This document shows, in pieces, positions 3,322 through 44,691 of a stretch of DNA of 45,321 bases; position 1 is the stretch's first letter, and every line of letters starts with the position of its first letter. Location: sequence record OR352959.1; one strand, written 5' to 3'. This DNA is from Escherichia phage AV129. Both the position numbers and the translations under genes were made by a program. The notes under the pieces are model-generated. The model did no database searches. It was not told where the DNA came from and saw only the letters and a list, made by a program, of their open reading frames with translations.

Positions 3322-5964
3322 ATGGCAGATCAGGCAGCAGGCATCACGCTAAAGGCTGATGTTGCACAAATCAGAACGGCAAATACTGTGCTGGACTCCT
3401 TCGCACAGAAATCCGAGAACACAGAAAACAAGGTTAAGAAATTAAACGACACCCTCGGCAAGTCCAAAAAGGTGACGAGTGACGCCGCGGGCGGAATGGA
3501 AAAGCTGGCAAACGAATCGCAGCGCGCCGCCGATGGCATGACGAAACAGGAGAGACTCGCCAACAGGTTAGGGATGTCGACTAAAAACCTGGGCTTTGCC
3601 TCGCGTAACGCCGCATTCCAGCTACAGGATATTGCGGTAACGCTTGAGATGGGGATGCCGGTTCACCGCGTCATGCTTCAGCAGTTACCGCAGCTAACTG
3701 GGGCGTTCGGTGGACTGGGTAACACGCTGCGTTATGTTGCGGGCTTCCTCGGCCCAGTAGGGATCGGCCTCGCCGCCGTAACGGCAACGTTAGGCGTGGG
3801 CGTGGCAATTACGTCCCGCGCAGAGAACCAGGTCGCCGCGCTTAACAAGACGCTGGCGCTGTCAGGTAACATTTCCGGCCTCACTGCAAACCAGATCCTG
3901 GTGTTATCCGAGAACGCCGAGCGCATGGGCGGATCATTCCGCAAGACGCGTGACACAATCCAGGCGCTGGCGGCGGCGGGTGTGAAAGCGGGTGGTGACT
4001 TCGGCGCATTGGCTAAGGTAGTTAATGACTTTGCGAAGGTGTCCAGCCAGCCGATCGAGGATGTGGTCGCGGCGGTGGCGAAGCTGTCAACCGACCCGGT
4101 AGGCGGCTTACGGGCATTGGCGGATAAGTATCACGTCGTAAACGAAGCGCAGATCCAGCAGGTACAGTCGCTTGTGGATATGGGTCGCGAGACAGACGCG
4201 GTGGCGCTGGCTAACAAAACCGCCGCGGCGTCGTTCACCACTATGACCAACGATATTAAGTCCAACATGGGTACGCTTGAGCGTTCGATGAACGTCGTCA
4301 CATCGGCAGCTAAATCTATGTGGGATGCCATCCTGGATGTTGGGCGCGCGCAGTCATCGAATGAGTCCGAGATGAAAGCGCGTGAGTCATTGCAGCGGCT
4401 GACCACGGCTTACTATGCCGAGATGAAAGCGGTAAACGCTGCCGGTGGGGTGATGACCGAAGCGCAGAAAGCGCGTATTAACATGCTTTACAGCGAACTT
4501 GTCGCACAGGAGAAGGTGGTGGCGTCGCTCACCCTGCGCAACCGTGCTGAGCGGGAAAACGCCAGCGCCGCGGACGAAGCAGCAAAGGCGAACGAAGAGG
4601 CCAACCGTACCGCCCGCGACCGCGCTGCGTTTGAGAAGGAGTACGCAACAAACGCGAAGAGGCGAGCTGACGAGATCGCCCGCCTCAATTTGCTGAATAA
4701 GCGTGGCGTGATTGACGAGAAAGAACTTGCCGAGGCGGTGAAGCAGGTAAACGAGCGTTACAAAGACCCCGCCCCGAAGAAGGCCGCCGCTGTTCGAGTC
4801 GATGCCGGGCTGAAAATGCTGGAGGTCGCACGGAGCGAACTGGCACAGCTTCGAGAATCAGGCAAGCAGATCGAGGCCAACTCTTCGACGCAGACCAGAA
4901 CGCAACGCGCGCAAGCGGCCCTTAACAAGCTGATTGCCGACAACGAGCAGTTAATCGCTGCGAGCAAAGAAAGGGCGCTGACGGCAGCAGAGAAGCAGCA
5001 ATTAGTCGAGTTCGGGCGCGTGAAGGAAGTCCGCGAGCAGATCGTCGAAGAAGCCAAATTGCTGGACGCGAAAGAGAAGCAGGTCAAGGCGCACGCGCAG
5101 ATCGACGCCTTCGTTAAGAACCAGAACGCCGAGCTAAAAGCCACCGCGGCGGGCTATGCGCTTTCCACTCGCGAAGCGGCAAACCTGCGTGAAGAATTGC
5201 AGCTAATTGACCGCCTTAAGCGGGTGGGCGCTAGCGATACCGATATTGATCTGGCGGTGTCTAAGCTGCGCGAAGTGCAGGAAGCACAGACCGGTGCTAA
5301 CGCCTCGCTATGGGATGGCTTCAGCCGCGGGCTTAAGGATAGCGTGGATGAAATGGGTAACGGCTATACGCAGATGACGTCACTCACAAAATTCACGTTC
5401 GGCGCTATGCAGGACACGATGAACAAGTTTTTCGAGACTGGCAAGCTGAACGCAAAGGATATGGTTAAATCCATCCTTAGCGAATTAATCAAGCTGGCTA
5501 CATCGCAGGCGTTCAAGTCCATCGTTAGCGCTTTCGGCGGTGACGGCGGCAAAAACGGATTGTTCGGCGCTATCTTCTCTGGCCTCACTAAGAATGCGGA
5601 CGGCGGAGCGTACGCAGGAGGCAATCTCGCGGCCTATTCGGGGAAAGTGGTAAGCCAGCCTACCTTTTTCAGTTATGGCGTCCAGGCGTTCGCTAAGGGC
5701 GCAGGATTGATGGGTGAGGCCGGACCCGAAGCCATCATGCCACTGAAGCGCGGGCCGGACGGGAAACTGGGTGTTGCCGCGTCTGGCGCAGGCGGTGGTA
5801 TGGTCGTGACGACTAACGTTTACACGGGGTCCGGTAAAACAGATACCAGTGTCAGCGGGCCGGACCCCCGTACCGCGCAGGCGTTCGGCAAGCAAATCAC
5901 CGAAGCGGTGAAGGCCGAGATCGTGAAAGCGACGAAACCGGGTGGTGTACTTTACAAACGATGA
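3322..5964 (+). CDS. tail tape measure protein
   Basis: 880-aa ORF after the chaperone pair; long helical Ala/Gln/Lys-rich middle and Gly-rich C-terminal region typical of tape measure proteins. Confidence 0.85.
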   Translation: MADQAAGITLKADVAQIRTANTVLDSFAQKSENTENKVKKLNDTLGKSKKVTSDAAGGMEKLANESQRAADGMTKQERLANRLGMSTKNLGFASRNAAFQLQDIAVTLEMGMPVHRVMLQQLPQLTGAFGGLGNTLRYVAGFLGPVGIGLAAVTATLGVGVAITSRAENQVAALNKTLALSGNISGLTANQILVLSENAERMGGSFRKTRDTIQALAAAGVKAGGDFGALAKVVNDFAKVSSQPIEDVVAAVAKLSTDPVGGLRALADKYHVVNEAQIQQVQSLVDMGRETDAVALANKTAAASFTTMTNDIKSNMGTLERSMNVVTSAAKSMWDAILDVGRAQSSNESEMKARESLQRLTTAYYAEMKAVNAAGGVMTEAQKARINMLYSELVAQEKVVASLTLRNRAERENASAADEAAKANEEANRTARDRAAFEKEYATNAKRRADEIARLNLLNKRGVIDEKELAEAVKQVNERYKDPAPKKAAAVRVDAGLKMLEVARSELAQLRESGKQIEANSSTQTRTQRAQAALNKLIADNEQLIAASKERALTAAEKQQLVEFGRVKEVREQIVEEAKLLDAKEKQVKAHAQIDAFVKNQNAELKATAAGYALSTREAANLREELQLIDRLKRVGASDTDIDLAVSKLREVQEAQTGANASLWDGFSRGLKDSVDEMGNGYTQMTSLTKFTFGAMQDTMNKFFETGKLNAKDMVKSILSELIKLATSQAFKSIVSAFGGDGGKNGLFGAIFSGLTKNADGGAYAGGNLAAYSGKVVSQPTFFSYGVQAFAKGAGLMGEAGPEAIMPLKRGPDGKLGVAASGAGGGMVVTTNVYTGSGKTDTSVSGPDPRTAQAFGKQITEAVKAEIVKATKPGGVLYKR

Positions 5965-12186: not shown

Positions 12187-12206
12187 GGGGCCATCCGGCC
12201 CCTTTT
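12187..12206 (+). terminator. rho-independent terminator at a convergent gene junction
   Basis: GGGGCC-atcc-GGCCCC hairpin followed by TTTT. Confidence 0.6.
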
Positions 12207-13179
12207 AATATATGTTAGGAATGACGAGTAACGGGGTTGGTACTGCAATATTTTTACCCGGCATTTGGAATTGTTGCCGTGAGTAGTTGCCAATGACGCG
12301 GTTTTTAGCTATGCGCACATTATTGCCCGCCATTCGTATACCGTTCATGCGTACGTGGTTATAGCCGCCGTTGTTCTCAATAAGCGCGCCGGTGTATGAA
12401 AGCTGGACCAGGCTGTTACCGATGTACTGATCGCCGCCGCCGATATTAATAAGGCGGTCATAAACAAACGGCTTATTCACAGTTGAGAACGTGACCTGAC
12501 CCTGGTTGTTTGTCATGGTGATGCCGTTCCCAGGGGTGGGCGGCGTATTGTTGAATATAACCAAGTCCATTTCAACAGCCGCGCCTACGTCGTCAATCCC
12601 ACCATAGGATGCATTACGGACGATAATACTTCCGCCATCGAAGCCGACAGACACGTTTCCGTCGTCCCAGCGCGCGAATGGGACACCGCCTACTGGTAAC
12701 GGCATACTTCCGTTCACCCACACGCGCTGCGCATATTGGCAGGTCATTAGCCTGGACACATTGGATATAGCGGTGAAGTCCGTCGAATTCGCCACCAGTA
12801 AGCCAGCGTTGCGCGATCCCACCGGCAGCACTTCCATAATCACCCCGCCCCATGATGGAAGCCCGCTATATGCGTTATACGCGTCCTCACCGCGCAAGGT
12901 GATTCCGCTATCCCCATTACGCTGTATTGACGTTATGTAAAACGGATCTGGCAAGACCAGTGTCTGGTCGAAGACTTCCATCACTTCAACGGGACTTGTT
13001 AGCACGACGACCAGATCTGACCCCGGCGTTAGCGGAGTGTTAATAGTTAGCGTCTTGTCAGACTGGCAGCGCTGATAGAATGATGTACAGAATGACGGCG
13101 CGCGTAGCCCAGCGGTTATCTCCATAACCGGTCGCCCGTCGTTGTAGTCGATAAGTATCCCAGCGCCCATTATTACCAC
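12205..13179 (-). CDS. putative tail-associated / receptor-binding beta-rich protein
   Basis: 324-aa Gly/Asn/Thr-rich ORF on the opposite strand between the J-like gene and the side fiber, translationally coupled to an upstream lipoprotein gene. Confidence 0.3.
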   Translation of the reverse strand: MVIMGAGILIDYNDGRPVMEITAGLRAPSFCTSFYQRCQSDKTLTINTPLTPGSDLVVVLTSPVEVMEVFDQTLVLPDPFYITSIQRNGDSGITLRGEDAYNAYSGLPSWGGVIMEVLPVGSRNAGLLVANSTDFTAISNVSRLMTCQYAQRVWVNGSMPLPVGGVPFARWDDGNVSVGFDGGSIIVRNASYGGIDDVGAAVEMDLVIFNNTPPTPGNGITMTNNQGQVTFSTVNKPFVYDRLINIGGGDQYIGNSLVQLSYTGALIENNGGYNHVRMNGIRMAGNNVRIAKNRVIGNYSRQQFQMPGKNIAVPTPLLVIPNIY

Positions 13180-13394
13180 TCCCGTGATTTAACTGATACC
13201 GTACCCGAGAAGTTGCCGTCGCTATCGGCAGACAGACCAGTGAAGCGCATATCCACATCTCCGGCTGGCACTTTCTTCCCGTCGACGTAGCGCAACATGC
13301 AGCTACCGTAGGCAACCGTAATGCAATCGCCGTTGTTGCGTTCTACAGCACAACCGGACAACAGAACCGCACAAATCATAATTAAAGTTTTCAT
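13173..13394 (-). CDS. small lipoprotein, putative superinfection-exclusion (Cor/Llp-like)
   Basis: ATG at 13394 with GGAGA RBS; signal peptide MKTLIMICAVLLSG followed by lipobox Cys; ~73 aa; sits next to the receptor-binding genes. Confidence 0.5.
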   Translation of the reverse strand: MKTLIMICAVLLSGCAVERNNGDCITVAYGSCMLRYVDGKKVPAGDVDMRFTGLSADSDGNFSGTVSVKSREW

Positions 13395-13474
13395 GGTATC
13401 ATCTCCTATATTTGGTTGAGTTTTAGTATTACACCGCTCGATCAAGAATGCAACCAATTTACGAGGATTTAGCT

Positions 13475-21735: not shown

Positions 21736-21968
21736 TTGGTCTGCAACTCCACGTTACGCAGACGAAGGTCTACCGGTATATCCGACCGGCCGGTTAGTGC
21801 CAGCGCCAGGTTTTCAGGCGTGACGAGTGCCGTAATGGTCTTGCCACGTTCCAGTCTAATGACGATTCTAATCTCGTCATTGTCCGTCGCGCCAGCGCGC
21901 ATAATGCTCATTTCTGCTTTCATAATCTTACTTCCTGTACCTGTACATAATGTCGCCTTCGGCGGCAA
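21732..21968 (-). CDS. hypothetical protein
   Basis: Small ORF immediately downstream of the polymerase gene; start uncertain. Confidence 0.3.
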   Translation of the reverse strand: MPPKATLCTGTGSKIMKAEMSIMRAGATDNDEIRIVIRLERGKTITALVTPENLALALTGRSDIPVDLRLRNVELQTK

Positions 21969-24900
21969 GTGGGAAGCCTTTCGCCCAAATAGGCAGGTCG
22001 CACATCAGCGCGCAAAGCTCCTCGGTCGTGTAGTCGTCGGTGTCCGGCACTTCTGTGATCAATTCGTCGTGTACTGACAGGACGATTTCATACCCCGCAG
22101 CTTCAACGCCAGGCATGGACCATGCGAGAATATCGCGACACAACGCCTGTACGATGTTCTCCGTCAGTTTGCCGCCGTAGGTATACTGGAATCCCCACTG
22201 GCGCGTCGTCTGATTCTCGCCCTGATATTTAATGCGTGTGCTGGTGCGCTTCTTGCCGGTGTCTTCGTCAATCTCGGTAGTGACAGACAGCGCGATGCCG
22301 GGGTAGCTCATGATGCGCCCCGACGGCAACTCAATTTTCAACCACCACCCAGCGGCGTTCGGGTCGTCGCGCTCCTCGTCAAAGGTTGGGTCGTGCTTCG
22401 CCTTCGTACGGACAATCTTGAGCGCTTTTCTACCGTCCGGGCGAACGTTCGCGCCAGCCCAGTATGCTTTACCAGGATTGCGGATTGCACACAACACCGC
22501 GTCCTCAAGCTCTGCCCAAAAGGCTACCGTCTTCGGGTGAGCCTCACGCCACATACGTTTGATCGCGTCACAGGTAAGCCATACGTTTTTCGGCAGTAAG
22601 TAGGTTGGGCGCTCGTCCTTCTTGCCGGGCTTCGGCGGGCGCTTCGCTTCGTTAATGCGAGCGTACTCATAACCACGTTTCGCCGCCGCCCAAATGTGAT
22701 CCGGGAACGTGCCTTTCATGACGTCAGCCATAGTGTAAAGGTCGAGGCCCAGGTTTTTAGCGAACTGCAAGAACGCCGCGACGCCGCCACCGTAGCCCAG
22801 ACCAAGCTCGCAGTTATGCGCCACCAGAAAACCAGACTTAGACGCAATAAGGAACCGGTTTCCGTCTTCCACATCAATCAGGTCGTAAACCGGCTCGCAA
22901 TAGGTTAACTTCCCGTTCCAGTTCAGCAATGCGGGTAAGGGCTTCATCGTACTTTCGCTGAAGCTCGGGCACGCTGCGCCGGTTACGGCAGTTTTCCGAA
23001 CGGCTGACAAACCGAAGGTTTCCAGGCTCATAGTTGCCGTCTGTATCGATCCGGTCCATTTCGAAGTCTGGCTTATCCCAGCCGTCCAGCGTTTGAACGT
23101 AGAGAAGAAACGACCTTTTATCTCTCTTCCATTCGTCACATACGGCAATCCCACGACCGCCGTAGTTTTTATACCCTTTAGCGCGGGGGTTTGCCGTTCG
23201 TGATATTGCCGCTGACAGCCGGTTGAGCAGCCGCGTTCTGTGCGCATCGTCTGGCATTGCGTCATCGTAGCAAAAATACTGTTTACGATACCGCTTTGTC
23301 GCTTCAATTGCGCAGAGGTTGCATTGGGATGTTTTACCCCTTCGGACGTTGTCATACCCGACGCGTCCTGGCATCGCTCCGCAATCACATTGGGCCAGCA
23401 GTTGTCTGTGCCCCTGTCGTTTTGGTAATTCGCGCAGGATAACCAGGCGTCCATACCTCTCGCCAGGGCGCGGACCATCGTGCACCTGTCTGAAACGAGT
23501 TGCCTTGCCTCCTTCCATGAATGCGTCAAGATTTTGTGGTCTTCTGTCATCAAGACCCCGTCCACGTCTATCACTGGTTTCCACCCCATAAGGTGCGCGC
23601 CTTTTGTACTCACCCATTTTTCGCCGTTCCATACTTTATCCGTTGATGTTACGGCCATAATATCCTTGAACCCGCCATTGGTCAATACTTGGGTATGGCG
23701 GTGCAAGCAAGCCTTCCCTATCTGGCGTAAATCCTTGCGGTTGGCTTTGATGTAATCCGGGTCAAGGCCAAACATCTTACCGGCAGTTTCACAATAGATA
23801 TCGCGACCGGCCTTAAACACCATTAGCGCGGTTTTCTCGCCTGCGGTCCAGGCAAGTCCACGCCCTTCCACGTTGGAGTAGTCCGCTACGACAAACTTCT
23901 TGCCCTTAGCCGGGATAATGCACCCGCGAACGGTCGAGGCTGTTAGCTTAGATATGTCATACGCCCAGTGCGCGGTCCCGCGTAACAGGGAATTGATGCC
24001 GTTGGTGAGCATGTGCGACCGGACCCAAAAAGCAACGTCGCTCTCGCCTTCGCGGCGCTTAATCTTCCCTTCGTGATCGTCGCTATACTCGCCGCGTGCC
24101 AGGTTTTGAGGCTGGAAGCCTTTACCCGCCCAGCGCAGCGTGCGCTTTGCGCCACCATACTGAAGACACCCACGGCGGCGACCATCTGCGGATAAGCCGT
24201 TAACTAACGGATTGTACTTAGTCGATGCCGTTGATGACGCACCGAGGCGCATTTCGATAAGCGCTTTGCCTTCGTCGGGGAAGTCCGGGTCTTCAAGCAG
24301 GTCGTTAAGTGTGGATTTCTGCGCGTTGTGGATTGTGAACGCAGGCGCGAGGTCGCGCAGCGCTGGCAGGAAGTCATTGCCGGTCAGCTTACCGCCGAAG
24401 CGCTCCCATGCTTCTTCCTTCAATTCTTCCTTATGCGCCTGCACCGCTTTGATCGCGGCGTTCGCCAGGTCAACGTCCACATAGAAGCCGCGGTCATTGA
24501 TCAACTGGTCAATAAGCAGGATTTCGTCTTCCTTCGGCGTGTTACCCCAGTCCGGTATGCGCCAGTAGACTTCCCTCATCGCTATAATATCCAGTGCGGC
24601 ATAGCGCAGGAATTTAGCCCATTCCTCGGGGTGCGTCTCGCGCGTATAGCGACGGATTTTGTAGGTCTTAGGGGTGGGCTTACAGAATCGTTTGATCAGC
24701 GCCTTGCCAGCCTTATCCTTCGCGTGCTCTGCGTCGACGCCCAACACCTGGCACTGCATATCGAGGCTACCCGGCAGCGCGTGTCGAAAGGCCATAATCA
24801 TGGTGTCTTCGATCTGGACTACCGGCAGGTCAATGCCCCACTTCTCGCGAATAACCAGGCGGTCAAACAGGAGGCCGTTAGCCATCACGATTTTTGCTTT

Positions 24901-25116
24901 CTTGCGGGATACCCGGCGGAGCGCCTTGCGCAGTTCACGCGGCATTGTGGGGGACTCGGTGCAATCCCATGTCTGCACGCGGCCCTCGTCGATGGCGTAT
25001 GTGCAAATCATAATCTCGGTAGTTGGGTGTTCCGCGTAGGCGTACGCCCCAACTTTCTTCAGGTCCACCCCGCTAAATGTCTCGGTGTCGAGAAACAGGC
25101 GTTCGAAGTCTTTCAT
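21928..25116 (-). CDS. DNA polymerase, family A with 3'-5' exonuclease domain, intein-containing
   Basis: Exo motif FLDTETFSG, motif A ADYSNVEGR, motif B split as RQIGKA / CELGLGYGGG around a ~299-codon insertion; C-terminal VHDE motif C. Confidence 0.85.
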   Translation of the reverse strand: MKDFERLFLDTETFSGVDLKKVGAYAYAEHPTTEIMICTYAIDEGRVQTWDCTESPTMPRELRKALRRVSRKKAKIVMANGLLFDRLVIREKWGIDLPVVQIEDTMIMAFRHALPGSLDMQCQVLGVDAEHAKDKAGKALIKRFCKPTPKTYKIRRYTRETHPEEWAKFLRYAALDIIAMREVYWRIPDWGNTPKEDEILLIDQLINDRGFYVDVDLANAAIKAVQAHKEELKEEAWERFGGKLTGNDFLPALRDLAPAFTIHNAQKSTLNDLLEDPDFPDEGKALIEMRLGASSTASTKYNPLVNGLSADGRRRGCLQYGGAKRTLRWAGKGFQPQNLARGEYSDDHEGKIKRREGESDVAFWVRSHMLTNGINSLLRGTAHWAYDISKLTASTVRGCIIPAKGKKFVVADYSNVEGRGLAWTAGEKTALMVFKAGRDIYCETAGKMFGLDPDYIKANRKDLRQIGKACLHRHTQVLTNGGFKDIMAVTSTDKVWNGEKWVSTKGAHLMGWKPVIDVDGVLMTEDHKILTHSWKEARQLVSDRCTMVRALARGMDAWLSCANYQNDRGTDNCWPNVIAERCQDASGMTTSEGVKHPNATSAQLKRQSGIVNSIFATMTQCQTMRTERGCSTGCQRQYHERQTPALKGIKTTAVVGLPYVTNGREIKGRFFSTFKRWTAGISQTSKWTGSIQTATMSLETFGLSAVRKTAVTGAACPSFSESTMKPLPALLNWNGKLTYCEPVYDLIDVEDGNRFLIASKSGFLVAHNCELGLGYGGGVAAFLQFAKNLGLDLYTMADVMKGTFPDHIWAAAKRGYEYARINEAKRPPKPGKKDERPTYLLPKNVWLTCDAIKRMWREAHPKTVAFWAELEDAVLCAIRNPGKAYWAGANVRPDGRKALKIVRTKAKHDPTFDEERDDPNAAGWWLKIELPSGRIMSYPGIALSVTTEIDEDTGKKRTSTRIKYQGENQTTRQWGFQYTYGGKLTENIVQALCRDILAWSMPGVEAAGYEIVLSVHDELITEVPDTDDYTTEELCALMCDLPIWAKGFPLAAEGDIMYRYRK
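22813..23709 (-). other. intein inserted in polymerase motif B
   Basis: Insertion starts with Cys (CLHRHTQVL), has block B-like VLMTEDHKILT, ends YDLIDVEDGNRFLIASKSGFLVAHN followed by +1 Cys. Confidence 0.7.
22874..23632 (-). CDS. HNH homing endonuclease, nested in the intein in a different reading frame
   Basis: Zinc-finger-like QCDCGA...SQCNLC, then YKNYGGRGIAVCDEW and DRIDTDGNYEPGNLRFVSRSEN; frame differs from the polymerase frame; likely start near 23518 (MEGGKATRF). Confidence 0.75.
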   Translation of the reverse strand: MERRKMGEYKRRAPYGVETSDRRGRGLDDRRPQNLDAFMEGGKATRFRQVHDGPRPGERYGRLVILRELPKRQGHRQLLAQCDCGAMPGRVGYDNVRRGKTSQCNLCAIEATKRYRKQYFCYDDAMPDDAHRTRLLNRLSAAISRTANPRAKGYKNYGGRGIAVCDEWKRDKRSFLLYVQTLDGWDKPDFEMDRIDTDGNYEPGNLRFVSRSENCRNRRSVPELQRKYDEALTRIAELEREVNLLRAGLRPD

Positions 25117-40587: not shown

Positions 40588-41674
40588 TCAATATATGGCG
40601 GATCGAATGATTCGCCGTCACATCTTCACCCAGCGCTTGAGCAATGATCAGGCGCGGAGGGTGCTGGCTATGTGGGAGAAATTCAGGCCCACTTTACTGG
40701 GTAAGCTGACCGAGTTACTTGATGGCAAAAAGTCCATGAACAACAAGGCACTTACCACACTGTTAACGCAACTCGACAAGACCGTCAAAACGGAACTGCG
40801 CACCGAGTTTAAGGCGCTGGCTGAAAGCCTTCAGGAGTTCGCCGACACCGAGGCTGATTATCTAGCCGACACATTAATGGCAGCGATCCAGCCTGCGGTT
40901 GCCGTACCGGCTGTTGAGGTTGTGAGCGTTGTAACCGGCGCGCAGATTGCCGCAACGGCAATGAAAAACCCGTTCCAGGGTAACACCATGATGCAATGGC
41001 CTGACTCACTTTCCGAGTGGACCAGGACGCAGATCGGCAATCAGGTGCGCGCTGGATTCATCCAGGGCAAGCCAACGATGGAAATTATTGCGGACGTGAG
41101 GCGCGCGCTAGGCGGTCGTAGTGCGCAAGCAATCTCAAGCGTTGTTAAGTCCGCAGTCAACCACTATGCGGCGACCGCCCGCGAATTAATGGTGAAAGCT
41201 AATGAAGATATTCTCGAAGGTCGCCAATGGTTGGCTACATTGGACACTCATACCTCCCCTATGTGCCAGCTACGCGACCGCCTGTTTTACCCTGTGGGCG
41301 TCACTCCCGAGACCAAAGGAAAGCGCGGCGGAAAAGTGGTGGCTGGATCGCAGTATGGCGCTGGTCCGGGCAAGCTGCATTATTGCTGCCGTTCGACGGA
41401 GACGTGGGAAGTCAAAGGTATGGAAGACTGGCCCAGTGGTAAGCGTCCGGCACTGAAGGCTGACGCGGGTCGGTTGCTGAGTGAACAGGTAGACGCGCAG
41501 ACTGATTTCTTCTCATGGGTGCAGCGCCAGCCGCGCCATATCCTGGAAGAATTATACGGGGTGCAACGCGCCGACCAGATTATGCGCGGTGTGAAAGTGC
41601 CGAAGATGTTCACCGATACGGGCGAACTAATGACTATTGCGCAGCTTAAAAACAGGGGGCTATGGCGTGATTAA
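40571..41674 (+). CDS. head morphogenesis / minor head protein (Mu F-like)
   Basis: 367-aa ORF overlapping the portal stop. Confidence 0.55.
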   Translation: MAKTINQYMADRMIRRHIFTQRLSNDQARRVLAMWEKFRPTLLGKLTELLDGKKSMNNKALTTLLTQLDKTVKTELRTEFKALAESLQEFADTEADYLADTLMAAIQPAVAVPAVEVVSVVTGAQIAATAMKNPFQGNTMMQWPDSLSEWTRTQIGNQVRAGFIQGKPTMEIIADVRRALGGRSAQAISSVVKSAVNHYAATARELMVKANEDILEGRQWLATLDTHTSPMCQLRDRLFYPVGVTPETKGKRGGKVVAGSQYGAGPGKLHYCCRSTETWEVKGMEDWPSGKRPALKADAGRLLSEQVDAQTDFFSWVQRQPRHILEELYGVQRADQIMRGVKVPKMFTDTGELMTIAQLKNRGLWRD

Positions 41675-41975
41675 GTATGCAGCGATTGGGCTGGTAATAG
41701 GCCTGGCGGTTGGATTCTGGCAGGGGGATTCCTACCGCACTGGCGTTGTGGCGAGAGCGGCGCAAGAAGCGCAAGCGAAAGCCCAACGGCAGCAAACTAA
41801 GGTCGTCGAGGGGGCAGTGCAAGCAGAACAGACCCGCGACGTAGAATACCGGACTATAACGAAAGAGGTTGTTAAATATGTTACGCGCCCTAACCGCCCT
41901 GATTGTAGTTTTGATGCTGAGCGCGTGCGGATCAAGCAACGTGCCGTTGATGCCGCTAACGGAGTCGGTCTATAG
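41667..41975 (+). CDS. i-spanin (Rz-like)
   Basis: GTG at 41667 after SD-like cagggggc; N-terminal TM segment IKYAAIGLVIGLAVGFW, Gln/Ala-rich coiled region, C-terminal Cys. Confidence 0.55.
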   Translation: MIKYAAIGLVIGLAVGFWQGDSYRTGVVARAAQEAQAKAQRQQTKVVEGAVQAEQTRDVEYRTITKEVVKYVTRPNRPDCSFDAERVRIKQRAVDAANGVGL

Positions 41976-42108
41976 ACCGCCTTGCACCTTTGAGAATGCC
42001 TCGGCAGATCCAGACGAAGACTTGCTGGTTGATGTTAAGAATATGGAGTGTGGTGCTAAGCTAAGGGCGCAAGTGCTGGAGTTACAGAAAATAATTCGGG
42101 GGCCGTGA
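41869..42108 (+). CDS. o-spanin (Rz1-like lipoprotein), overlapping the i-spanin in another frame
   Basis: Signal peptide with lipobox LSAC, Pro-rich mature region; starts inside the Rz-like gene in a different frame. Confidence 0.6.
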   Translation: MLNMLRALTALIVVLMLSACGSSNVPLMPLTESVYRPPCTFENASADPDEDLLVDVKNMECGAKLRAQVLELQKIIRGP

Positions 42109-42122
42109 TGGCCCCCTTTTTT
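42097..42122 (+). terminator. rho-independent terminator
   Basis: GGGGGCC-gtgat-GGCCCCC hairpin followed by T6. Confidence 0.7.
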
Positions 42123-42127
42123 GTTAG

Positions 42128-42646
42128 CTACAAACGCATCGGCATGATAACAAGGAAGGCACCGCCTTTGAACAGCACACGGGTCGCCTTGTCTACTCCC
42201 TGAAATTCCAGTTTTAAGCTATCAAACTTACGGTCGAACAATTTAGCAATTTTGCAGGCGTCTGACAGGTATACCCCGGCAAACCCTATAGCTTCCACTT
42301 TAGCGCTATCGAAAGACGTAACTCTACTCCAGTCTGGGAATCGGCCGTCTACGATCTCTACGGGTATGGTACCGATTAATACGTCTTTACTATCAAAGAA
42401 CGCAGCGGAGGTGCCGTCTATGTTGCAGTATTCGAATTTAGTAGGTAAGCGGCCTTTAATTGCTACTATTTTACTTTCACCTTCGGGAACAACCGCGGAC
42501 CCGCAGAACAAACGATGACCGTCGGTGGACACGATGAATCCTTTCTCGTCGAAAAATACACCGTTCAGACAGTATCGCACGTCATTAGTCGCGGCGCACA
42601 TCATAGCGGCTTTAAGATCGGCATAGTTAACTTTAATCATTGTCAT
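42128..42646 (-). CDS. truncated DnaN-like protein (beta sliding clamp domain II plus C-terminal remnant)
   Basis: DVRYCLNGVFFD, STDGHRL, VDGRFPDWSRV and C-terminal VIMPMRL match conserved segments of bacterial beta clamp as I recall them; only 172 aa; start MTMIKVNY. Confidence 0.7.
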   Translation of the reverse strand: MTMIKVNYADLKAAMMCAATNDVRYCLNGVFFDEKGFIVSTDGHRLFCGSAVVPEGESKIVAIKGRLPTKFEYCNIDGTSAAFFDSKDVLIGTIPVEIVDGRFPDWSRVTSFDSAKVEAIGFAGVYLSDACKIAKLFDRKFDSLKLEFQGVDKATRVLFKGGAFLVIMPMRL

Positions 42647-42788
42647 TTCCTCGTTGTTGGTGTGCAACCAATATATGCAACCAATACGCGGATTGCAAGC
42701 GAATTTTGCGATTATTTTTATCACTGATAATATTAGAGGCGTGAAGTCGAGCGGGTGGCCCGCTCTGCCACAATCCCAGGGGGATAGC

Positions 42789-43493
42789 ATGAAACTTACT
42801 AAAGCAGAATATGACGCGTTGCCGGAAGGTATGAAGGCGCTTTTTGTTGCCGATGGTGACGGGTATAAATCAACGTTCATGACCGCAGAAGAAGTACAAG
42901 CGGAAATCAAGGGTCTGAAAGACAACAACGCGAAGCTGGTGAGCGAGAAGAAAGCAGAAGCTGAACGTCGCGCCGAAGCCGAGCGCCTTGCGAAAGAGAA
43001 AGAGGAAGCCGCCGCGCGCAAAAATGGCGACCTCGAAGCGATCGATAAGTCCTGGAAGGATAAGTTTGCGAAACACGAAGCAGATACATCGGGAAAAATC
43101 GAAGCCTACCGCAAGCAGATCCACGATCTAACCATCGGCAGCGCTGCCAAAGACCTGGCGTCGAAGCTGTTCGGTAAGAATGCAGGCATCATGCAACGTC
43201 ACGTTATGGATCGCCTAACGCTGGAAGACGGCGAAGACGGCAGCTTGAAAGTGCGGGTATTGCAGGATGGCAAACCGTCCGCGCTGACTATGGAAGAGCT
43301 TGAAAAAGAGTTCCGTAATAACGCCGATTTTGCATCCGTCCTGGCTGGCACGCCAGCCGGTGGCGCGCCTAGCAAACCGACGCAGGTTGTCGAAGATGTG
43401 AAGTCGAAAATCACTATGGGCCATAGCTTCGGCATCACTGACCTTACGAAACAGGCAGGTGATATCATCGCTAAGATGGGCGACGACGAGTAA
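42789..43493 (+). CDS. scaffolding protein, putative
   Basis: ATG at 42789; Glu/Lys/Ala-rich coiled segment; sits between the portal/morphogenesis genes and the major capsid gene. Confidence 0.5.
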   Translation: MKLTKAEYDALPEGMKALFVADGDGYKSTFMTAEEVQAEIKGLKDNNAKLVSEKKAEAERRAEAERLAKEKEEAAARKNGDLEAIDKSWKDKFAKHEADTSGKIEAYRKQIHDLTIGSAAKDLASKLFGKNAGIMQRHVMDRLTLEDGEDGSLKVRVLQDGKPSALTMEELEKEFRNNADFASVLAGTPAGGAPSKPTQVVEDVKSKITMGHSFGITDLTKQAGDIIAKMGDDE

Positions 43494-43497
43494 GCAG

Positions 43498-43524
43498 ATT
43501 GCCCGCGAAAGCGGGCAATTTTGC
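43498..43524 (+). terminator. putative intrinsic terminator
   Basis: TTGCCCGC-gaaa-GCGGGCAA hairpin followed by TTTTG. Confidence 0.5.
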
Positions 43525-43590
43525 GAGCGCGTAAATCTAAGGTAACATTAACGTCACTGGGCGAATGCTCACAACTCAAAGGATTTCGAT

Positions 43591-44691
43591 ATGTCTTTAA
43601 CAGTGTTCCAGCGTAAACTCGTTACCGCGGTTACGCAAATGATCCCCGATAACCTGAACGTTTTCAACGCCGCCGCCAATGGCGCTGTTGTTCTCGGTAC
43701 TGGTGAAGTGCTGAAGGATGTTGTAGAGAAAATGTCCGTAGGCTTGATCGCCAACCTCGTTACCGACCGTAACGCCTATGCCCCTGTCGGTACTCCGGCG
43801 ACCGCTAAAGTGCTGGCGCGTATGCTGACCAACTCCGTTAACCTATCCGCGAAAGTGGGTCCGGTAGCGATCACTAAGGCTATGATGGCTAAAATCGAAA
43901 CCAACGTTAACAGCGTTGCGGCTGAGATTGCGGCGCAGGCTACTCAAGCGATTATGCTGCACTACCTGAAAGCGGGTATCGGCGCGGGTAAAGCGGCGAT
44001 CGAAAGCAACGCAGCGGCAAAATACACCCAACCGGCGCGCGTTGACGGCGTTGGCGGTCGTACCTTCCCGACCCTGGCAGACTTCCCGCTGGCGGCTTCT
44101 AAGTTCGGCGATCAGGCGTCTTTGATTAAATCCTGGTTTATGGACGGCGTTACCTGGGCAAACTTCATTGCGTACCAGGCACTCCCTTCCGCGGAACAGG
44201 TATTCGCAATTGGCGATCTCCAGGTAATGGGCGATGGCCTGGGCCGCCGCTTCATTATCTCCGATGCCGCTGCCGATGCTATGGGCACGGGTAACATGCT
44301 GGGTCTGGTCCCTGGCGCGGTTGCCGTTACCACCAACGGCCTCGATATGCTGGCGCAGGAGAAAGGCGGTAACGAGAACATCGAACGCTGGTGGCAGGGC
44401 GAGTTCGACTTCAACGTGGCTGTTAAAGGCTATCGTCTGAAGGCGTCCGCTCGTACCCCGATCGAAGGCGTCCGCTCATTCAAGCTGGACGATATCACCA
44501 CTTCCGCTAACTGGGAACTGGACCAGGGCCAGGTAGACAACGCACCGGCAACCGTTCAGGACGTTGGCGCTGTTGGTGATGGCGACACTAAAGGCCGTCG
44601 TAAGACCCAGGCCGCACAGGCAGTGCCTACCCGTCACATCAAGGAAACCGCTGGCGTACTGGTTACGCTGACTGCGACCACCGCGTCTTAA
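43591..44691 (+). CDS. major capsid protein, putative
   Basis: 366-aa ORF with aagga RBS, after the scaffold and followed by a strong terminator. Confidence 0.65.
   Translation: MSLTVFQRKLVTAVTQMIPDNLNVFNAAANGAVVLGTGEVLKDVVEKMSVGLIANLVTDRNAYAPVGTPATAKVLARMLTNSVNLSAKVGPVAITKAMMAKIETNVNSVAAEIAAQATQAIMLHYLKAGIGAGKAAIESNAAAKYTQPARVDGVGGRTFPTLADFPLAASKFGDQASLIKSWFMDGVTWANFIAYQALPSAEQVFAIGDLQVMGDGLGRRFIISDAAADAMGTGNMLGLVPGAVAVTTNGLDMLAQEKGGNENIERWWQGEFDFNVAVKGYRLKASARTPIEGVRSFKLDDITTSANWELDQGQVDNAPATVQDVGAVGDGDTKGRRKTQAAQAVPTRHIKETAGVLVTLTATTAS

Follow-up and report, generated by a model that had tools for sequence, protein, structure and literature searches.

A short phage homologue of the beta sliding clamp with a predicted non-ring architecture and a conserved clamp-binding-motif pocket

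The window analysed here is the whole 45,321-nt sequence of Escherichia phage AV129 (OR352959.1), a member of the genus Dhillonvirus. On its minus strand, between the spanin pair and the scaffold gene, lies a short gene whose product resembles the bacterial beta sliding clamp, DnaN. The gene and the sites around it are as follows:

42098..42116, bidirectional: predicted intrinsic terminator hairpin, common to the spanin operon (plus strand) and the DnaN-like gene (minus strand)
42128..42646, minus strand: short DnaN-like gene, 172 aa from the ATG at 42646; probable start at the ATG at 42640, giving 170 aa
42647..42652, minus strand: ribosome-binding site (RBS) GAGGAA, 7 nt 5' of the ATG at 42640 and kept in relatives
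42663-42673 and 42676-42686, minus strand: paired direct copies of TATTGGTTGCA, overlapping the spacer and -10 element of the promoter as well as the first part of the 5'UTR
42670..42698, minus strand: predicted sigma-70-like promoter, TTGCAA (42698), 17 nt, TATATT (42670)

Translation from the in-frame ATG at 42646 to the stop codon, which ends at 42128, reproduced the 172-aa minus-strand ORF of the original prediction, which had been made from the letters alone. The mechanical ORF extends 5' as far as a TTG at 43021. Despite this open frame, the closest homologue clusters are 170 aa long and begin with MIKVNY. Since GAGGAA directly abuts the ATG at 42646 but sits 7 nt from that at 42640, the latter is the likelier start.

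The four sequence motifs on which the resemblance to DnaN had been based were all found and could be aligned to the E. coli protein, using a reference sequence that agrees with PDB 1MMI over residues 1-366:

DVRYCLNG: E. coli DnaN residues 150-157
STDGHRL: E. coli DnaN residues 171-177
VDGRFPDWSRV: E. coli DnaN residues 237-247
VIMPMRL: E. coli DnaN residues 360-366

Single-sequence searches supported the homology. A phmmer search of the PDB matched 34 beta clamps (best E 5e-7), and TIGR00663 was matched at E 1.3e-5, with 24.4 bits against a curated threshold of 137.65. The sole clamp domain of Pfam matched by the window protein was the DnaN central domain, PF02767 (E 2.4e-4), which at 21.8 bits falls below its gathering score of 27. 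Aligning a 40-member family profile with E. coli DnaN by hhalign gave a probability of 99.2% (E 1.7e-19). An AF2 model built from the family alignment had a pLDDT of 92.8 and a pTM of 0.89, and the best 50 matches listed for it by Foldseek against the PDB were beta clamps only (E ~2e-8). Profile and structure comparison, the checks proposed with the original prediction, thus placed the similarity far above chance and confirmed that the short phage protein is homologous to the bacterial beta sliding clamp.

This homology is not new but has stood in annotations since the records of two earlier phages. The orthologue in Sodalis phage SO-1, gp07 (96.5% amino-acid identity), is labelled 'putative DNA pol III beta subunit; possible moron', and gp15 of Burkholderia phage Bcep43 is labelled 'DNA Pol III b subunit fragment'. 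For some 20 years the names given to such genes have been 'Pol III beta subunit' and, in error, 'RusA-like resolvase'. The second name belongs to PHROG 3007, which carries the label 'RusA-like Holliday junction resolvase' and to which the window protein belongs, with a full-length match (E 5.4e-54 over residues 3-172). We reject this label: there was no match to PF05866, no RusA domain was found in the window protein by Pfam at E values up to 10, and the structural neighbours are all clamps. The unsupported name has spread from PHROGs to many RefSeq phage records (for example, L001:5082-5600 in our set of loci). No functional study of these short homologues came to light in the searchable literature. 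What is added here is the exact architecture, the conservation confined to the pocket, the size and context of the family, and the nature of both the genomic slot and the repeated boxes.

The original prediction had called the gene truncated. As a description of a decayed remnant this does not hold, given a large, conserved family of short proteins and pairwise dN/dS values of 0.18-0.27 among four Dhillonvirus orthologues. A word-index search recovered 153 homologues, nearly all of 165-195 aa, and an exhaustive profile search returned 2779 cluster representatives at E <= 1e-10, the best 150 of which were all short (mostly 165-245 aa) and matched nearly the full profile. Family members are typically of ~170-210 aa. 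Judged by these substitution rates, the gene is under purifying selection and is not a decayed fragment.

The hhalign alignment defined which parts of the clamp have been kept. Residues 10-118 correspond to DnaN 138-254, that is to domain II, and residues 119-172 to DnaN 314-366, the C-terminal half of domain III, including the IGFNxxY segment and the VxMPMRL strand. There is no counterpart of domain I or of E. coli residues 255-313. The earlier description of domain II plus a shortened C-terminal remnant was therefore right as to domain II, the remnant being in fact the 314-366 half-domain. An alternative phmmer alignment, in which residues 117-146 fell on domain III in its first half, was rejected; the mapping to 314-366 is preferred because it is colinear, fits both the IGFNxxY segment and the secondary structure, and needs no internal gaps.

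In the AF2 model the order of secondary structure elements is b-a-b-b-b / b-loop-b-b-b / b-a-b-b-b, and the beta-alpha-beta-beta-beta motifs of the clamp fold are present, with sheets outside and helices inside. The exception is the helix of the second half of domain II, which lines the DNA channel in real clamps; all family members have a short loop in its place. The retained parts form an unbroken quarter-ring arc of three such motifs, in native clamp geometry. At 170-172 aa, the protein does not have the three tandem domains and ~366 aa of DnaN. In the beta dimer, I78 and F106 of domain I pack on I272 and L273 of domain III, and K74, R96, R103 and R105 of domain I form ion pairs with E298-E304 of domain III. 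All of these residues fall in absent regions. Both sides of the head-to-tail interface are gone because domain I and residues 255-313 are missing, and the earlier view that such a fragment could not form a normal three-domain clamp is borne out by the coverage of the alignment. In its predicted architecture the gene product is thus shown to be a stand-alone, non-ring derivative of the beta clamp. We also considered a 'poison subunit' that would cap domain I of host beta through I272/L273, and rejected it, since that surface lies in the deleted segment.

The retained elements are those that build the hydrophobic pocket in which QLxLF-type clamp-binding motifs dock. A 2024 review (PMC11139829) assigns R152, L155, T172, G174, H175, R176, L177, P242, R246, V247, V360 and M362 to subsite I of this pocket, and H175, N320, Y323, V344, M362, P363, M364 and R365 to subsite II. 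All 18 positions lie inside the retained segments, the C-terminal half-domain supplying those of N320, Y323 and M362-R365. Of the 18 pocket positions, 12 were at least 90% conserved among the 40 aligned sequences, as against 35 of 172 overall (hypergeometric P = 7e-6), and the equivalents of L155, G174, H175, R176, P242, Y323, M362 and P363 make up eight of the 14 invariant columns. The other pocket positions vary conservatively, save the equivalent of V344, which is variable in true clamps too (PMC11139829). Hence both subsites are conserved at the sequence level, and the supposition that part of the pocket had been retained was correct as to retention and understated its extent. Since it is the pocket that is conserved within the retained segments, the family resembles a clamp pared down to its client-docking site. 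Part of this retention could nevertheless reflect a constraint on the fold, because the same residues are the most conserved in DnaN generally.

Individual Dhillonvirus copies differ in and around the pocket. At the equivalent of Y154, which borders the pocket and lies outside the 18 scored positions, the window copy has Cys (codon 26 of the 172-aa frame, 42569-42571), as against Tyr in the other 39 of the 40 family members; phage rolling has Phe at this position. The window copy also has Ala at the N320 equivalent, in subsite II. Close relatives differ at the equivalents of D173 and V247, with TheodorHerzl having Asn at the former, a position that is invariant elsewhere.

The region surrounding the gene is well represented among phages. 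Positions 41600-43600 of the window matched 158 phage records, nearly all from Dhillonviruses of Escherichia or Shigella, and were 95.6% identical to SO-1. The SO-1 annotation gives the order portal, MuF-like head morphogenesis protein, i-spanin, o-spanin, gp07 (on the opposite strand), scaffold and major head protein, which confirms the plus-strand spanin pair and scaffold gene originally named as neighbours. Promoter-like and terminator-like sites, both predicted, flank the gene, in keeping with the proposal of an antisense unit with its own promoter inside the late block. Among Dhillonviruses, the slot between the spanins and the scaffold gene was found in three configurations:

DnaN-like gene alone: the window, SO-1, TheodorHerzl and JLBYU27
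Nmad5 gene followed by DnaN-like gene: rolling, WF5505, EP23, CHD5UKE2 and 101114BS4
Nmad5 gene alone: the majority of Dhillonvirus records

Equivalents of window positions 42128-42790 in three of the loci compared are L002:828-2164, L003:824-1588 and L004:823-1587. The DnaN-like gene is present in 15 of the 158 Dhillonvirus records, and Nmad5, a protein of 254 aa (PF18757), in about 146 at >=80% identity. The two cargos are not homologous by hhalign (probability 0.5%), and no PDB relative was found for Nmad5. The gene for Nmad5 can be deleted and is toxic on cloning, and a Lys-to-Glu change in Nmad5 allows a Dhillonvirus to escape the Tmn defence (PMC11846954, the one experimental study of direct relevance that our literature search yielded).

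In other Dhillonviruses the same ~45-bp terminator stands downstream of Nmad5; phage rolling has two copies of it, one on each side of the DnaN-like cassette. The three states of the slot would be interconverted by recombination between the terminator repeats, and between the ACGAGGAAA RBS segments, which are likewise repeated. With its predicted promoter and terminator, its insertion into the late block and its variable presence, the unit has the attributes of a moron. We infer that in Dhillonviruses the DnaN-like gene is accessory cargo, outside the essential replisome.

The promoter region itself is not particular to this gene. Paired GCAACCAAT boxes had been placed at 42662-42684; they exist, at the slightly shifted positions 42664-42672 and 42677-42685, each within one of the two TATTGGTTGCA copies listed above. 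A gene-specific role is contradicted by two observations, namely that the same promoter and 5'UTR precede Nmad5 in most Dhillonviruses and that the motif occurs 13 times genome-wide. Indeed, the promoter, both TATTGGTTGCA boxes, the 5'UTR and the RBS are near-identical in six Dhillonviruses, whichever cargo follows. With one mismatch allowed, the 13 copies of TATTGGTTGCA in the window compare with 0.73 expected, and start at the following positions:

13449, 16605, 18510, 18527, 21472, 28940, 31843, 32214, 32245, 32975, 35455, 42663 and 42676

Most copies are intergenic, and they are often paired. TATTGGTTGCA supplies the TTGCAx -35 element in arrangements of the form TTGCAx-17-TATATTGGTTGCRCACCAAC...AGGAGG, with a conserved 5'UTR GGTTGCRCACCAAC..AGGAGG, and a group of small early genes, the helicase and primase-helicase genes and the ligase/Dam cluster are each preceded by such an arrangement. 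The motif is accordingly associated with promoters throughout the phage, and the boxes are not the site of a regulator dedicated to the DnaN-like gene. By its distribution, TATTGGTTGCA looks like an early or middle promoter class or a regulator site, which suggests that the DnaN-like gene may be co-expressed with the replication genes. The copy at 13449-13459 precedes a second antisense unit, located in the tail block (12205-13457, minus strand), which encodes a phage lipoprotein (PF24052) and a DUF6453 protein and may be a moron of the superinfection-exclusion type.

A survey of related phages, as had been suggested, showed that the short family recurs, often in early or replication operons. 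In Kagunavirus and in Bcep43 the gene lies antisense within the head module, and in Skate it shares an operon with a gene for a ParB-HTH protein, adjoining the coat-protein gene. Serratia phage Eta has the order ParB-like, clamp-like, helicase; in Skarpretter the gene lies amid methylase, dUTPase and primase genes, in a Vibrio phage it is flanked by Erf, RepL and primase genes in the early region, and in one metagenomic phage it stands beside a Pol A replication module. In lambdoid prophages it comes directly after cro or cII and before Rep_O/lambda-P or DnaC-like genes, and in one prophage it ends a recombination operon that also carries a homologue of the theta subunit of Pol III. In this last case, a Serratia-type prophage (L017), the theta homologue (PF06440, 103-369) and the mini-clamp (5001-5534) lie in the same early operon, so that one phage carries two imitations of host replisome parts. 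The ParB-like and ParB-HTH genes are directly upstream of the clamp-like gene in the unrelated phages Eta (L009:2661-3482) and Skate (L006:4927-5736), which could indicate a functional pairing.

The carriers also differ in their replication machinery. Pol A is encoded in Dhillonviruses and Kagunaviruses, for Eta no DNA polymerase is annotated, and phages of the O/P type use host Pol III. SO-1, Eta and fFiEco02 all lack an annotated clamp-loader gene. The DNA polymerase ORF of the window (21928-25116, minus strand) is open for 1062 aa across the group I intron with HNH endonuclease annotated in SO-1; a nested 252-aa ORF (22874-23632, minus strand) overlaps it in another frame, and only residues 393-469 of the polymerase ORF match the Pol A profile. 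Because two long overlapping ORFs on the same strand are unusual, the insert could be an intein or another in-frame insertion.

These observations are consistent with a model in which the mini-clamp acts as a non-ring sink, made early, that binds clamp-binding motifs and titrates those host clamp clients that carry a single motif. We assign this reading, early expression and motif binding included, a probability of roughly 0.45. The protein would be made early, from a sigma-70-type phage promoter of the class that precedes replication genes, and its pocket would bind the QLxLF-type motifs of host proteins away from the real clamp. As a monovalent sink it would prefer single-motif clients that are off DNA, such as Hda, MutS/MutL, translesion polymerases and free delta, and the Pol III holoenzyme would not be poisoned. 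Host replication and repair would be shifted to the advantage of phage DNA replication. Host proteins are the probable ligands, since no phage replication protein carries a canonical motif: across eight phage sequences (the window and seven other phage loci) canonical clamp-binding motifs occurred at or below chance, and none was found at the termini of replication proteins. A general poison of the replisome appears unlikely, because the carriers include phages that depend on host Pol III. A precedent for client binding outside a ring is a laboratory monomeric variant of beta, which binds delta ~50-fold more tightly than the dimer does and gives no processive synthesis.

Not every feature of the protein points to a pure sink. 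Two conserved lysines, K132 and K135, on the remaining helix of domain III could indicate DNA binding, which would fit an adaptor better, and the adjacency to replication initiators fits recruitment as well as a decoy. We regard such an adaptor, in which the pocket would hold a host enzyme (the Pol III core, Pol I or ligase) and a second surface would contact phage DNA or an initiation-helicase complex, as the main rival of the sink and as possible, if on the doubtful side; the other rivals are minor. By analogy with monomeric factors of the herpesvirus UL42 type, it would bring host enzymes to phage forks without encircling DNA. In many unrelated phages, including some without an annotated DNA polymerase (Eta and the lambdoid O/P types), the gene immediately downstream encodes a replication initiator or a helicase, and D129, K132, A134 and K135, none of them pocket residues, are conserved on a helix that lines the channel in real clamps. 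However, the neighbours are too varied (O/P, DnaC-like, Prim-Pol, SF2 helicase and Pol A modules) for a single phage partner to be evident, and the gene is dispensable in ~90% of Dhillonvirus records that otherwise have the same replication modules. That dispensability also weighs against the idea that four copies, their half-domain edges pairing into a pseudo-domain III, close a ring. The exposed half-domain face in the model, left by removal of half of domain III, suggests self-association or a partner, and may well require one; clamp domains have internal pseudo-twofold symmetry, and three motifs in each of four chains would restore the 12 motifs of the beta dimer. Such a two-subunit arc or four-subunit, 12-motif ring, with pockets on both faces and loaded on phage DNA without a loader, could tether host enzymes, but the channel helix of the second motif is deleted throughout the family and the carrier genomes examined have no annotated clamp-loader gene. 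We consider the ring and the self-associated arc alike very unlikely.

A general shut-off of host replication, by trapping the clamp-loader subunit delta or Pol III alpha with an outcome like that of N4 gp8 or Twort Gp168, would draw on the tight binding of delta by monomeric beta noted above and on the full retention of subsite I, the docking site of the L73/F74 plug of delta; Dhillonviruses and Kagunaviruses, with their own Pol A replisome, would be immune. It is unlikely all the same, for the gene is also found in the replication operons of lambdoid prophages and of Eta, which have no annotated polymerase and need host Pol III and its loader. A loop of beta gives delta additional contacts, and this loop, which we take to fall in the deleted 255-313 segment, counts further against a shut-off. 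The company of Nmad5 raises another explanation, in which the pocket captures the motif of a host defence or exclusion protein, or the gene replaces Nmad5 and so avoids sensing of the Tmn type. The slot is shared with the non-essential Nmad5, a point mutation of which escapes Tmn, and presence within the genus is patchy; yet there was no PADLOC match, the analysis identified no defence protein that carries a clamp-binding motif, and elsewhere the gene is stable in replication operons rather than in anti-defence islands. A counter-defence decoy is accordingly hard to credit, and the client sink remains the reading that we prefer.

If the client sink is correct, clamp-binding motifs are trapped by a natural, free-standing protein of many enterobacterial and other proteobacterial phages, among them lambdoid prophages in which the gene heads the replication operon. 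This would be a principle of host takeover distinct from that of the known phage clamp inhibitors, because the docking site is imitated instead of blocked. It would also provide a scaffold of ~170 aa for ligand studies and screening of the beta-clamp pocket, an antibiotic target.

Compared with DnaN itself (E. coli P0A988; PF00712/PF02767/PF02768), the phage protein keeps domain II and the second half of domain III in native geometry, but has 170 aa rather than 366, has neither the dimer interface nor one of the channel helices, and scores under the curated thresholds. With this predicted architecture the mini-clamp cannot be a canonical, ring-forming processivity clamp. In being non-ring with an intact pocket it resembles the engineered monomeric beta I272A/L273A, which still binds delta and DNA and cannot tether Pol III; that protein, however, is a laboratory point mutant with all three domains, whereas the phage protein is a natural form of 1.5 domains. 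Phage factors that act in the host clamp network are likewise known from Twort, whose Gp168 binds in the beta channel, and from Mu, whose MuC uses beta for late transcription, and N4 gp8 targets delta. None of these three is a clamp homologue: they bind the clamp or its loader, whereas the mini-clamp imitates the site at which clients bind. Other Pol III subunits have phage homologues as well, such as Hot of phage P1 (PF06440), a full-length homologue of theta, which is likewise a small replisome part carried by a phage, derived in that case from a different subunit.
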